From the sequence record OK335775.1: a stretch of DNA of 64,000 nt. The stretch is one strand, 5' to 3'. The position numbers and the translations under genes were made by a program. Under the pieces are notes generated by a model that was given only the letters and a program-made list of their open reading frames with translations, did no database searches and was not told where the DNA came from. The stretch's first letter is position 1. Each line of letters begins with the position of its first letter. This document shows positions 5,552-8,813 of this stretch, piece after piece. Source of the stretch: Escherichia phage PSD2002.

Positions 5552-5717
5552 GATTTCTGTATTCGAATTATTCGAAGAGTATGAAATCGTATCAAAGGAC
5601 CAAGAAGCTATCCATATTATTGCCGGTGATGGTGTGACTTGGATTATCCCACTGTATCATGAAGATACCTATGAAGTCACTGATGCGAATGGTGATAAAG
5701 CTATTTTCGTAATATAA
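5526..5717 (+). CDS. Hypothetical small protein
   Basis: ATG at 5526 after GAAGGG; ORF track begins at TTG 5508. Overlaps the end of the preceding ORF. Confidence 0.35.
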   Translation: MSAMCTGSKISVFELFEEYEIVSKDQEAIHIIAGDGVTWIIPLYHEDTYEVTDANGDKAIFVI

Positions 5718-5720
5718 ATA
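5713..5720 (+). promoter_or_regulatory. Late promoter motif TATAAATA
   Basis: Exact TATAAATA upstream of the small ORF at 5735. Confidence 0.4.
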
Positions 5721-5933: not shown

Positions 5934-6962
5934 ATGTCATATGTCGATAGAGAATTTGCTGTACGTGCCTTGAATTACCAACCTAAATTCAGACAAGTAA
6001 CTGGTAGTGATTTTAAATTAAACTGTCGTTGTCGTGTATGTGGCGACTCCCAAAAAGATGAGAACAAAGCTCGTTTTTGGGCCTATCCGGCTAATGATGG
6101 CTCCGTAATGCTGCACTGTTTTAACTGCGACTATTCAGCAGGAATTAAGAAGTATCTATACGAATATGAGCCGGATTTATATCGAGAATATATTCTTGAG
6201 AAACATAAAGAGCAATCGTTCGGGAGACAAGCTGCACCTAAGGTGGAGATATCTGAAAAAATTAAAGCTAAGATGCCTGTCATCGAAAAGCTTAATTTCT
6301 GTGAACGATTAGATAGAATGCCGAAGGACCATCCTATTATCAAATATGTAACACTACGTTGCATTCCTGAAAACAAATGGAATCGCTTATGGTTTACTAA
6401 AGAATGGCCGGCATTGGTGAACTCTGTCAATCCAGGGACCTATTCTAAAGAAATGCCTGAGCCTCGTTTGGTTATTCCAATTTTCAATAAGAATAAACAA
6501 ATTGAAAGTTTTCAGGGTCGAGCCTTACGTAAAGATGCTCCACAAAAGTATATTACAATAAAAGCTCATGACCAAGCTACAAAAATATATGGAATGGATA
6601 CAGTTGACGAACGTCAGTTGGTGTGGGTAATGGAAGGTCCTATTGATTCATTATTCGTACCTAATGCAATAGCAATTACTGGCGGGTCGTTGGACTTGGC
6701 TATGGTTCCGTGCAAAGAAACTAGGGTTTGGGCCCTTGATAGCGAAAGCCGCCACCCAGATACTATTTCAAGAATGAAAAAGCTTATCGAGGCTGGTGAA
6801 AAAGTAGTGTTTTGGGATAAGGTCCCTTGGCCTTCTAAAGATATTAACGATATGATTAGAAAAGACGGGGCGTCGCCGGAAGCAATACTAGAATATATGA
6901 AAAGTAATTACAGTCAAGGATTAATGGCTAAATTGAGATTACAACGGTATGCTAAAATATGA
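5934..6962 (+). CDS. 61: Gp61 DNA primase
   Basis: 342 aa; N-terminal zinc-binding CRCRVCGD...CFNC and Toprim-like core; matches T4 gp61 in size and sequence as recalled. Confidence 0.95.
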   Translation: MSYVDREFAVRALNYQPKFRQVTGSDFKLNCRCRVCGDSQKDENKARFWAYPANDGSVMLHCFNCDYSAGIKKYLYEYEPDLYREYILEKHKEQSFGRQAAPKVEISEKIKAKMPVIEKLNFCERLDRMPKDHPIIKYVTLRCIPENKWNRLWFTKEWPALVNSVNPGTYSKEMPEPRLVIPIFNKNKQIESFQGRALRKDAPQKYITIKAHDQATKIYGMDTVDERQLVWVMEGPIDSLFVPNAIAITGGSLDLAMVPCKETRVWALDSESRHPDTISRMKKLIEAGEKVVFWDKVPWPSKDINDMIRKDGASPEAILEYMKSNYSQGLMAKLRLQRYAKI

Positions 6963-7714
6963 ATTATAATAAAATTTATGACGATTTGGTTAATAGGGCC
7001 CTTGAAAGGGGTCTTATTAAAGAAAATTTAAAATACTATACAGAATCTCATCATATTATACCTGAATGTATAGGTGGGCCTGATATAGATTCAAACAAAG
7101 TATTATTTACGGCAAGAGAGCATTTTATAGCTCACATATTATTGTATAAGATTTATAAGTTGCCTAAATTAATATATGCTGTGCATATGATGTGCAATTC
7201 TAGCGAAAAGCACCAAAGAAATTCTAAGATGTATGACTGGCTTAGAAAGGAGCATAAAGCAGCCTTAAGTAAGAAAATGACCGATGCTTGGAAAGCCCCT
7301 GAATTTAGGACCAAAATGGTGGCGGCCTTATACCAAAGGCACAAAGATAAGCCCGTCACAGAGGAGACTAGGGAAAAACAGTCTAATTCTCTAAAGAGGT
7401 ATTATAAAGAAAATCCTATCTCTGAAGAAGCAAAAAAGAAAAATTCAGAAGCCCAAAAACAAAGGTTTAAAGATAGGCCTCAAACAGAAGAAACAAAAAG
7501 ATTAAGGAAGGACTCATGCAGAAAAACCCAAGGCACCCCTATATGGTTATGTAATTCGAATGGGGTAGGAATAGAAAAGTTTTCTTCTGCGGCAGAAGCT
7601 AAAGAAATCTTAGGATTGTCCGGGCACACCCAAAATATATACACCGCTTGTAAGCGAAACAAAGAAACCGGGAGATTGTATAAATCCTCCGGTTTAATTT
7701 GGAAATATCAATAA
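6959..7714 (+). CDS. HNH-family homing endonuclease (Mob/I-Hmu-like)
   Basis: 251 aa; HNH core HHIIPECIGGPD...N...EHFIAH followed by a Lys/Glu-rich repeat region and a C-terminal DNA-binding-like module; start overlaps the gene 61 stop (ATGA); markedly AT-rich codon usage compared with flanking genes. Confidence 0.8.
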   Translation: MNYNKIYDDLVNRALERGLIKENLKYYTESHHIIPECIGGPDIDSNKVLFTAREHFIAHILLYKIYKLPKLIYAVHMMCNSSEKHQRNSKMYDWLRKEHKAALSKKMTDAWKAPEFRTKMVAALYQRHKDKPVTEETREKQSNSLKRYYKENPISEEAKKKNSEAQKQRFKDRPQTEETKRLRKDSCRKTQGTPIWLCNSNGVGIEKFSSAAEAKEILGLSGHTQNIYTACKRNKETGRLYKSSGLIWKYQ

Positions 7715-7720
7715 TGGCAT

Positions 7721-7921
7721 TTAAACCTGCATACCTGTAAAGAATCCAATGATGCTCAACACGTGTTCCATAGTAACCGCAGGGAGAGTAATACCCTGAC
7801 TAGCCGCAACAGGTACAACTAAAAGATTCCATAGGAACACATCTAAAGCAAGGAAGCCCATCATGAGCTTTTTATCTTTCTTGCTGGTTAATTTCCAAAT
7901 TTGGTAAAATATACTACCCAT
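7721..7921 (-). CDS. Small hydrophobic (membrane) protein, antisense to the early-gene block
   Basis: 66 aa on - strand, strong SD (AGGAGG 5 nt before ATG), TATAAATA late-promoter motif on - strand at 7943-7950; fills a 206-bp gap not covered by any + strand ORF. Confidence 0.45.
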   Translation of the reverse strand: MGSIFYQIWKLTSKKDKKLMMGFLALDVFLWNLLVVPVAASQGITLPAVTMEHVLSIIGFFTGMQV

Positions 7922-7942
7922 GTTATCCTCCTGTTAAATTAA

Positions 7943-7950
7943 TATTTATA
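7943..7950 (-). promoter_or_regulatory. Late promoter motif TATAAATA for antisense small ORF
   Basis: TATTTATA on + strand, i.e. TATAAATA on - strand, about 22 nt upstream of the - strand ATG at 7921. Confidence 0.45.
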
Positions 7951-7953
7951 TCT

Positions 7954-7977
7954 TGCTTTACAAATTAATGATATAAT
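7954..7977 (+). promoter_or_regulatory. Middle promoter (MotA box TGCTTTA + TATAAT) for gene 56
   Basis: TGCTTTA at 7954-7960, 11 bp spacer, TATAAT at 7972-7977. Confidence 0.55.
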
Positions 7978-8020
7978 TATCTAACTTATTACCTAATATG
8001 AATTGAAAAGGAAAAATATA

Positions 8021-8536
8021 ATGGCTCATTTTAACGAATGTAGTGGTTTGATTGCAGGTGTTGATAAAGCTGAGGAAGCTTATGTTAGTGCAATTACCAA
8101 AGGTATCGACCCACTGCAGGTTATGCTTGATATGCAGAAATCTTTACAGGTTCGTCTGGCTAATGACCGTGATTATTGTTACCACCCGGATAAACTGGCT
8201 ACTGCAGGTGATGTTGTTGGATGGATGCGCGAACAGAAAGACTGCATCGATGATGAATTCCGTGAACTTCTGACTTCACTTGGTGAAATGTCTAAAGGTG
8301 AGAAAGATGCTTCTGCCGTCTGGAAAAAATGGAAGGCACGTTACCCAGAAGCTCAGTCTAAACGTATTGATGAAATGAGCCCTGAAGACCAGTTGGAAAT
8401 TAAATTTGAACTTGTGGACATAATCCATTTCGTATTAAACATGGTTACAGGTCTTGGTATGACTTCTGAAGAATTGTTCAAACTTTATTATCTGAAAAAT
8501 CTTGAAAATTTCAAACGTCAGGACAATGGGTATTAA
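8021..8536 (+). CDS. 56: Gp56 dCTPase/dUTPase (dCTP pyrophosphatase)
   Basis: 171 aa from ATG 8021 (ORF track starts at TTG 8003); MAHFNEC... and long identical blocks match T4 gp56 as recalled. Confidence 0.9.
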   Translation: MAHFNECSGLIAGVDKAEEAYVSAITKGIDPLQVMLDMQKSLQVRLANDRDYCYHPDKLATAGDVVGWMREQKDCIDDEFRELLTSLGEMSKGEKDASAVWKKWKARYPEAQSKRIDEMSPEDQLEIKFELVDIIHFVLNMVTGLGMTSEELFKLYYLKNLENFKRQDNGY

Positions 8537-8540
8537 TCAG

Positions 8541-8548
8541 TATAAATA
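8541..8548 (+). promoter_or_regulatory. Late promoter TATAAATA for soc
   Basis: Exact TATAAATA about 30 nt upstream of the soc start; soc is a late gene in T4. Confidence 0.65.
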
Positions 8549-8579
8549 CACCTGTAATTAAACAACAAAGGAGTTAATT

Positions 8580-8813
8580 ATGGGTGGTTTCGTTAATATC
8601 AAAACCTTTACACATCCAGCTGGTGAAGGTAAAGAAGTTAAAGGTACTGAGGTTTCGGTCCCGTTTGAGATTTATTCAAACGAGCACCGTATTGCAGACT
8701 CTCATTATCAGACTTTCCCTTCGGCCGTTGCAGCCTATACTACTGTAGTGACTGATGCAGCCGATTGGCGAACTAAGAACGCAGCAATGTTCACGCCGAC
8801 CCCAGTAGTTTAA
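8580..8813 (+). CDS. soc: Soc small outer capsid protein
   Basis: 77 aa; VNIKTF...HYQTFPS..AAYTTV matches T4 Soc; TATAAATA late promoter at 8541-8548; terminator downstream. Confidence 0.85.
   Translation: MGGFVNIKTFTHPAGEGKEVKGTEVSVPFEIYSNEHRIADSHYQTFPSAVAAYTTVVTDAADWRTKNAAMFTPTPVV

Follow-up and report, generated by a model that had tools for sequence, protein, structure and literature searches.

A conserved small gene opposite the primase gene of T4-like phages encodes a predicted late inner-membrane protein

In a 64,000-nucleotide stretch from Escherichia phage PSD2002 (sequence record OK335775.1; hereafter the window), an open reading frame (ORF) of 66 codons runs on the minus strand at positions 7721..7921, within a block of plus-strand early genes. 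We conclude that this ORF is, very likely, a genuine protein-coding gene for a small membrane protein, and the upstream sequence points to its transcription from a late promoter, which we regard as likely. The best explanation overall is a real accessory gene of the T-even type whose product would be made late and reside in the inner membrane, an account that we consider probable. Over positions 6900-8600, the window shares 99.8% identity with Escherichia phage Bp7 (NC_019500/HQ829472), a T4-like Dhakavirus; we discuss the locus under Bp7 names and take the gene labels from the Bp7 annotation.

The ORF begins with ATG and ends with a stop codon at 7723..7721, as given by the ORF list and the Bp7 annotation, and corresponds to F392_gp130 in the Bp7 record, where it is labelled a hypothetical protein. 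The first-pass annotation of the window had pointed to a 66-residue minus-strand ORF among plus-strand neighbors, which we could confirm, as the plus strand carries each of the 28 further genes annotated within 6 kb to the left and right. The annotated gene order in Bp7 is uvsX, 40, 41, dmd, 61.4, sp, 61.1, 61 (primase), a homing endonuclease gene, F392_gp130 (reverse strand), 56 (dCTPase), soc, and mrh.2. The gap between the end of the HNH-type endonuclease gene (7714) and the annotated start of gene 56 (8021) amounts to 306 bp (7715-8020), not to the 206 bp given earlier. The ORF occupies 201 bp of it, and the promoters lie in the other 99 bp. The gene had also been described as hidden; it is, in fact, already annotated as a hypothetical protein in the Bp7 record and in hundreds of relatives.

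Antisense ORFs of 60-110 residues are frequent in the ORF list of this AT-rich window. Neither the ORF alone nor the late-promoter motif TATAAATA alone would be significant; it is their joint conservation in relatives that is significant. Such conservation, proposed in the first-pass annotation as a check, holds in at least 10 genera. The protein matches the profile of phrog_2024 (function unknown) with E=5.1e-28, residues 1-64 aligning with positions 1-64 of 65. Searches with tblastn found homologues of the Bp7 type in 127 phage records, comprising Dhakavirus and T4-like phages of Klebsiella, Enterobacter, Citrobacter, Salmonella, Pectobacterium, and Kosakonia. Homologues of the T4 type were found in 693 records, in 687 of which the ORF is near full-length and uninterrupted. 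Both types together account for ~800 T4-type phage genomes. The gp61 proteins of ~1,000 phage records share at least 60% identity with the Bp7 protein, so that most of these phages have the small gene. Between pairs of the JS98 type, nonsynonymous divergence (pN, 0.08-0.20) is far below the saturated synonymous divergence (pS, 0.71-0.93), a clear mark of purifying selection on the protein. The N-terminus MG(S/T)(I/L)FYQIWKL is conserved from the first ATG.

The small gene adjoins the primase gene 61 on the opposite strand in every T4-type locus examined. The two genes stand tail to tail in T4, RB69, VR25, Marfa, Q7622, PM2, CGG4-1, Moon, Kosakonia 305, JD18, and L017, and most of these converging pairs have a 4-nt overlap at their stop codons. 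No HNH gene separates the small gene from gene 61 in T4, RB69, VR25, Marfa, Q7622, PM2, Moon, and Kosakonia 305, where the two are immediate neighbors, and JS98 likewise carries no HNH-type homing endonuclease gene at this junction. The location typical of phrog_2024 and T4 Dam.1, beside the 3' end of gene 61 but on the other strand, was also found in Bp7, where a 756-bp homing endonuclease gene lies between the two.

The predicted expression signals of the gene are compact. The plus strand reads cccatgttatcctcctgttaaattaatatttatatc, and its complement carries the box TATAAATA at 7950..7943, an exact match to the T4-type late promoter box. Further along the minus strand follow 10 nt, the Shine-Dalgarno (SD) sequence AGGAGG at 7932..7927, 5 nt, and the ATG at 7921..7919, so that box and ATG are 21 nt apart. 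The first-pass annotation had reported AGGAGG 5 nt from the ATG and an exact late-promoter motif about 22 nt upstream, and both stand. Because T4 late promoters have TATAAATA at -13 to -6 (PMC1524935), transcription is predicted to start near 7937 with a leader of 16 nt. A T4-type late unit is defined by such a box and needs no -35 element, which is the arrangement found at 7950..7943. The opposite orientation of the gene is not odd, since T4 late transcripts normally run in either polarity (PMC2988020). The only sigma-70-like match on the minus strand near the gene, at 7937..7908, lies downstream of the predicted start site and could not drive the ORF because the start codon lies inside it.

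We compared the 60-80 nt upstream of the ORF among 14 T4-like loci having their own upstream region. A late-promoter-like box (NATAAATA or ATTAAATA) together with a strong SD was present in all 14. The box is TATAAATA in Bp7, Marfa, Q7622, and Kosakonia 305; GATAAATA in T4 and PM2; AATAAATA in RB69 and JS98; CATAAATA in copy A of VR25, SP18, JD18, and L017; and ATTAAATA in CGG4-1 and Moon. At each locus, (A)GGAG(G) follows within 2-14 nt after the box, and the spacing to the ATG is kept throughout. The variants are of kinds that established T4 late promoters also show: at the late promoters of T4 relatives, conservation of position -13 is poor (PMC1524935), and the 50 sites listed for T4 include 32 perfect ones, nine with A at -13, and one with a TA-to-AT change (PMC2988020). 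The 25 nt across the late box, leader, and SD (ATAAATATTAATTTAA, then AGGAGGATA) are near-identical in T4 and Bp7, differing by one inserted C, whereas the two proteins are only ~20% identical.

As for the protein, we compared layout and hydropathy among 18 family members and the motif in an alignment of 22 sequences. All 18 share a basic N-terminal flank, one strongly hydrophobic stretch, a loop, and a hydrophobic C-terminal helix of 13-15 residues, and most have in addition an amphipathic helix in the N-terminal flank and an acidic residue after the loop. The best 19-residue hydropathy window reaches 1.8-2.6 in every member. Lysines and arginines number 2-8 in the N-terminal flank vs. 0-1 in the C-terminal part, and the N-terminus is placed in the cytoplasm because this basic flank is N-terminal (positive-inside rule). 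Only the segment at residues ~19-41 has a membrane-spanning length. The two hydrophobic segments noted in the first-pass annotation are thus both present, but the second (~53-66), with its 13-15 residues, is too short to span the membrane. An AlphaFold2 model built with the family alignment contains helices 2-11, 14-41, and 51-62, with a moderate mean pLDDT of 70.7. For the RB69 homologue RB69ORF029w, one transmembrane segment (21-41) and no signal peptide were predicted before (Nolan et al., 2006; PMC1524935). From composition and model, the product looks like an N-in membrane microprotein of the inner membrane.

K15, W31, N32, P37, G43, and T50 are invariant in the alignment, A39, P47, V49, and G63 are near-invariant, and it is in the loop and the outer half of the helix that the invariant residues cluster. 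The Bp7 protein shows the motif W-N-x4-P-x-A...G-x2-(L/I)-P-x-V that characterizes this family of 52-82-residue proteins, of which the core W/Y-N, P, G, and P positions are kept even in distant members. Asparagine within a transmembrane helix favors helix-helix association, and we infer on this ground that the conserved surface may mediate self-association or partner binding.

The family comprises at least three divergent subtypes, represented by T4/RB69, JS98/Bp7, and Moon/Kosakonia/JD18. T4 Dam.1 of T4T (ADJ39749), RB69ORF029w (NP_861719), RB32ORF030w, and phrog_2024 belong to the same family as the Bp7 protein by hidden Markov model (HMM) match and shared motif, and they resemble it in size (most members have 57-74 residues), in the opposite-strand position beside gene 61, and in the late-type box and SD. 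The T4 and the Bp7/JS98 subtypes differ in that they share only ~20% identity, vs. ~61% for gp61 between T4 and Bp7, and in that Bp7 has a homing endonuclease gene before gene 61; the family has no assigned function. Gapriverviruses carry two subtypes in tandem under one promoter, the second copy being without a promoter of its own (VR25, locus L005, 1295-1701). In SP18 (locus L028, 511-820), copy A is intact and copy B is a 5'-deleted remnant that has lost its first ~35 codons, which suggests from sequence that the subtypes may be functionally redundant. Disruption of the ORF with retention of the interval, which would have spoken against the gene, occurs only in the second copy of such tandem-copy phages, where the first is intact. 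No paralogue of the small protein was detected in the window by HMM search against its six-frame translation.

Phage T4 itself encodes a homologue of 66 residues at NC_000866 17738-17938 (+) (locus L003, 3739-3939), with the same core motif and an AAGGAGG site, on the strand opposite to gene 61. This ORF lies in a 309-bp stretch between dam and gene 61 that is unannotated in NC_000866. ORFs of the T4 type have been named dam.1 (T4T), RB32ORF030w (RB51), and RB69ORF029w (RB69).

A search with the family profile through 1.84 billion representative proteins yielded 16 clusters of 33-82 residues, with the same motif in their members, plus one spurious match to a repeat protein, and there were no fusions or larger relatives among these clusters that would hint at a function. 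The phrog_2024 family is thus a small one. Neither Pfam (E up to 10) nor NCBIfam, PADLOC, or a PDB profile search matched any family, and a BFVD fold search at E<0.1 returned only family members. In the literature, including work on T4 small proteins, ribosome profiling, and transcription-start-site maps, we found nothing on the gene. Homologues in several Klebsiella phage records (e.g., MZ571829, PP660556, and MN106245) bear the label "DNA packaging ATPase", which we reject as an annotation error, since a hydrophobic peptide of 66 residues cannot be an ATPase. The label "Holin" on one UniRef entry of a relative is unverified and looks like an unsupported automatic annotation.

Some features around the gene deserve mention. 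A possible terminator of the minus-strand transcript lies at 7657..7695, inside the 3' end of the HNH gene, and consists of a hairpin at 7695..7665 (-12.8 kcal/mol) followed by CUUUGUUU. It is a weak candidate, as the plus strand also folds (-16.4 kcal/mol). Hairpins are present in the gene 61 3' ends of T4, RB69, and Marfa, and in T4 (L003 3975-4030 (+), z = -2.8) and RB69 (L004 1725-1785 (+)) a long hairpin with a U-rich stretch after it forms on the antisense strand of this end. When 12 phages, JS98 and Bp7 among them, were compared, no consensus RNA structure emerged downstream of the ORF or at the 3' ends of gene 61, and we dropped the idea of a conserved terminator there. On the plus strand, a candidate middle promoter for gene 56 occupies 7951..7977, with the MotA box tctTGCTTTA at 7951-7960, an 11-nt spacer, and TATAAT at 7972-7977, which fits the MotA-box consensus and the 12 +/- 1 bp spacing (PMC2988021). 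A distance of 3 bp separates this middle-type site from the late box of the other strand, and divergent promoters of two temporal classes would thereby share ~35 bp; AAGC(A/G) motifs likewise abut the late box in JS98, RB69, VR25, SP18, PM2, and CGG4-1. The HNH-type homing endonuclease gene (6959..7714, +; phrog_655, E=3.6e-52) overlaps the primase stop by 4 nt and is inserted exactly between what are, in most relatives, two convergent and overlapping genes. Near the same place, a homing endonuclease is also present in other dhakaviruses, where some records call it mobE. Two further exact copies of TATAAATA lie on the plus strand. The one at 8541-8548 is 31 nt before soc (8580), as expected for a late gene, and the one at 5713-5720 is so close to the 61.1 homologue (5734), at a distance of only 13 nt, that an SD would not fit into the leader; this copy may be due to chance. 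The gene soc, at 8580-8813 in the window, provides a precedent in T4 and its relatives for a gene with its own late promoter among early genes. It differs from the small gene in lying on the same strand as the early genes and in encoding a soluble capsid decoration protein, whereas the product of the small gene, on the other strand, is a membrane protein.

Outside the T4-like phages, three distant homologues (P0074, P0075, and P0077) match phrog_2024 at E 1e-9 to 6e-11. They reside in uncultured siphovirus-like contigs of three lineages, and a tblastn search with P0077 against cultured phages gave no match. The family member recurs there in a module with a large tail protein, a ~94-residue protein with a transmembrane segment and a coiled coil, endonuclease VII, and usually a small ORF. 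In two lineages, the genes of the module all point the same way; the third, that of L012, has its tail genes and endonuclease VII on the other strand. In this third lineage (L012/L013/L026/L027), the family member heads an operon that ends, three genes downstream, in a soluble T4-type lysozyme, near which the family member and a 91-residue coiled-coil protein are the only membrane-protein candidates. P0075 also weakly matches phrog_3427 "holin" (E=0.0023). The coiled-coil protein of ~91-94 residues (L012 5643-5918 (-), L015 3260-3544 (+), L016 4272-4556 (+)), with an N-terminal transmembrane helix and a long coiled coil, accompanies the family member and endonuclease VII in each of the three lineages. 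It has a weak match to an Rz-like spanin (E=0.0012) and may be a lysis protein. A CTAAATA motif was seen upstream of the L012 homologue.

The account that we favor can be laid out in five steps. Purifying selection maintains the 66-codon ORF, which in every locus examined lies opposite in strand to gene 61 and beside its 3' end, as the comparative sequence evidence shows. Late in infection, RNA polymerase modified by gp55, gp33, and gp45 would start at TATAAATA, at ~7937, as sequence and established T4 biology lead one to expect, and would produce a short mRNA with the 16-nt leader and a consensus SD; in Bp7, this transcript may stop at the hairpin 7695-7665. The protein would then enter the inner membrane, and composition and structure model suggest that the amphipathic N-terminal helix and a KKDKK cluster stay in the cytoplasm, residues ~19-41 form one transmembrane helix, and the short hydrophobic C-terminal helix lies at or beyond the periplasmic face. 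The Trp-Asn pair in the helix, the proline five residues on, and the loop G-x2-L-P-x-V-x2-(E/D) are the only strongly conserved residues and probably form a helix-helix or interfacial contact for self-association or for binding a membrane partner. Our guess for the last step is a late role at the envelope, in lysis timing or lysis inhibition, as a holin-like protein or a modulator of a holin, with the gene dispensable in some T4-like genera and the divergent subtypes functionally interchangeable.

We put forward an accessory role in such late envelope events as a tentative possibility. It is favored because a small inner-membrane protein that a lytic phage makes late usually has a part in lysis or in controlling it, and because of the distant lineage linked to lysozyme. 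The lysozyme context of that lineage and the weak holin match of P0075 are the only positive leads to a role in lysis. The protein resembles class II holins (S21, T7 gp17.5) as well as T and RI of T4 in being small, membrane-embedded, and presumably late. Like a holin, it has at least one transmembrane domain in a small protein, namely the hydrophobic helix ~19-41, and its homologue in one uncultured lineage is located upstream of a lysozyme gene. It differs from holins and antiholins in the position of the T4-like gene away from the lysis genes and in matching no holin family, apart from the one PHROG hit of a distant member. T4-like phages already have the holin T, the antiholin RI, and RIII. 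A more specific version, in which the small protein is an unrecognized part of the T-even machinery for lysis and lysis inhibition that binds holin T or T-RI through the Trp-Asn/Pro transmembrane motif and sets or stabilizes lysis timing, seems doubtful to us.

Several observations weigh against the favored account or against its lysis component. The motif TATAAATA is not enriched in the window (7 copies vs. 6.5 +/- 2.5 expected), and the equivalent RB69 site is not among the 31 RB69 late promoters in a published HMM-based in-silico list. The structure model is of moderate confidence and is compatible with both a single-pass protein and a hairpin. The charged hydrophilic C-terminal tail expected of a holin is missing: the last 25-28 residues are hydrophobic, with 0-1 K/R and a net charge of 0 to -2, and the charge cluster is N-terminal. 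Nor is there an adjacent endolysin gene in T4-like phages, where the flanking genes are those for primase or the HNH protein and dCTPase, and the other two siphovirus-like lineages have no adjacent lysozyme. Lysis of T4 depends fully on holin T, and the small protein can therefore not be a sufficient holin in T4. For these reasons, i.e., the lack of a charged C-terminal tail and of endolysin linkage and the need of T4 lysis for holin T, we do not class the protein as a holin. The Bp7 protein matches no known holin, antiholin, spanin, Imm, or defense family, and the holin/antiholin, exclusion, and immunity roles proposed at first are still speculation. The gene is absent at the locus in phiR1-RT, Muldoon, Asfd_1, a Slopekvirus, a Krischvirus, and an Ishigurovirus. 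Its absence at the locus from six genera (Tegunavirus, Slopekvirus, Krischvirus, Biquartavirus, Muldoonvirus, and Ishigurovirus) marks the gene as accessory and any role it may have as non-essential for the T4-type life cycle.

Other roles for a small membrane protein have to be weighed against a late envelope function. A superinfection-exclusion or immunity-type protein would keep out the DNA of secondary phages, prevent the damage they cause, or counter a host defense that acts at the membrane, and its subtypes would reflect an arms race. T4 Imm, an inner-membrane superinfection immunity protein of 83 residues, is a T-even protein of similar size and location. The subtypes of the small protein, ~20% identical next to a gp61 of ~61% identity, vary within one genus and form tandem two-subtype arrays, a pattern common in conflict genes. 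However, transmembrane segments in which few positions are constrained usually diverge fast as well, and selection within a genus is strongly purifying, not diversifying. Exclusion functions of lytic phages are made early, and imm belongs to the early genes and has another map position (between genes 42 and 43), whereas the small gene has late-type signals, and the lone sigma-70-like match, overlapping the start codon, cannot express the ORF. With no similarity to Imm detected (Pfam, E up to 10) and no other Pfam or PADLOC match, we regard such a role as unlikely. A morphogenetic factor, i.e., a late inner-membrane helper of assembly, for instance of prohead initiation by the portal gp20 with gp40, would agree with the predicted late expression and membrane location, with the siphovirus-like homologues inside tail/endonuclease VII operons, and with the presence of gene 40 in the same early block. 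Yet several T4-like genera that share the head-assembly machinery do not have the gene at the locus, no sequence link to any assembly factor emerged, and we know of no T4 morphogenesis mutants that map between dam and 61, all of which makes this role quite improbable.

It is also conceivable that the main product is the RNA, a late transcript that acts as antisense RNA on the 3' end of gene 61 (or, in Bp7, on the homing endonuclease gene) and shuts off early-gene expression, with the ORF being secondary. The 4-nt stop overlap with gene 61 in most relatives leaves no room for a terminator, so that a late transcript must read antisense into gene 61. Such a function would not explain the strong amino-acid constraint despite saturated synonymous change, or the consensus SD kept everywhere at optimal spacing. 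The siphovirus-like homologues that are co-directional with their neighbors have no antisense target, the gene 61 3' ends have no conserved RNA structure, and the Bp7 ORF has stayed intact with 756 bp of endonuclease gene parting it from gene 61. We consider this explanation highly improbable. That an antisense frame in an AT-rich spacer lies behind TATAAATA by accident could be argued from the chance frequency of the motif and from the spurious antisense ORFs common nearby. The comparative data refute it to the point that we give it virtually no credence: ORF, SD, and box are conserved over at least 10 genera and ~800 genomes, pN is far below pS, and the hits of the profile search are all small proteins with the same motif.

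The family already has database entries under the label hypothetical protein, and a transmembrane segment was described for it in 2006. Apparently unreported are the conserved late-type promoter, the presence of the gene in T4 proper, the subtype structure with tandem copies, and the homologues outside the T4-like phages. The finding is a correct reading of an already annotated hypothetical gene, an uncharacterized small phage membrane protein rather than a system of a new kind. Although T4 serves as the reference lytic phage, its record omits this conserved gene; proteomics, CRISPR interference screens, and transcript quantification built on the T4 reference annotation would miss it. If the product acts with T or T-RI, it would have been overlooked for decades because that annotation lacks the ORF. 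Should the protein have no role in late envelope events, the locus would still provide a compact example of a late gene tail to tail against an early gene, of late and middle promoters back to back within 35 bp, and of a homing endonuclease landing exactly between two converging genes. If the role in late envelope events is true, the small protein would be a new player in the classic system of lysis and lysis inhibition.

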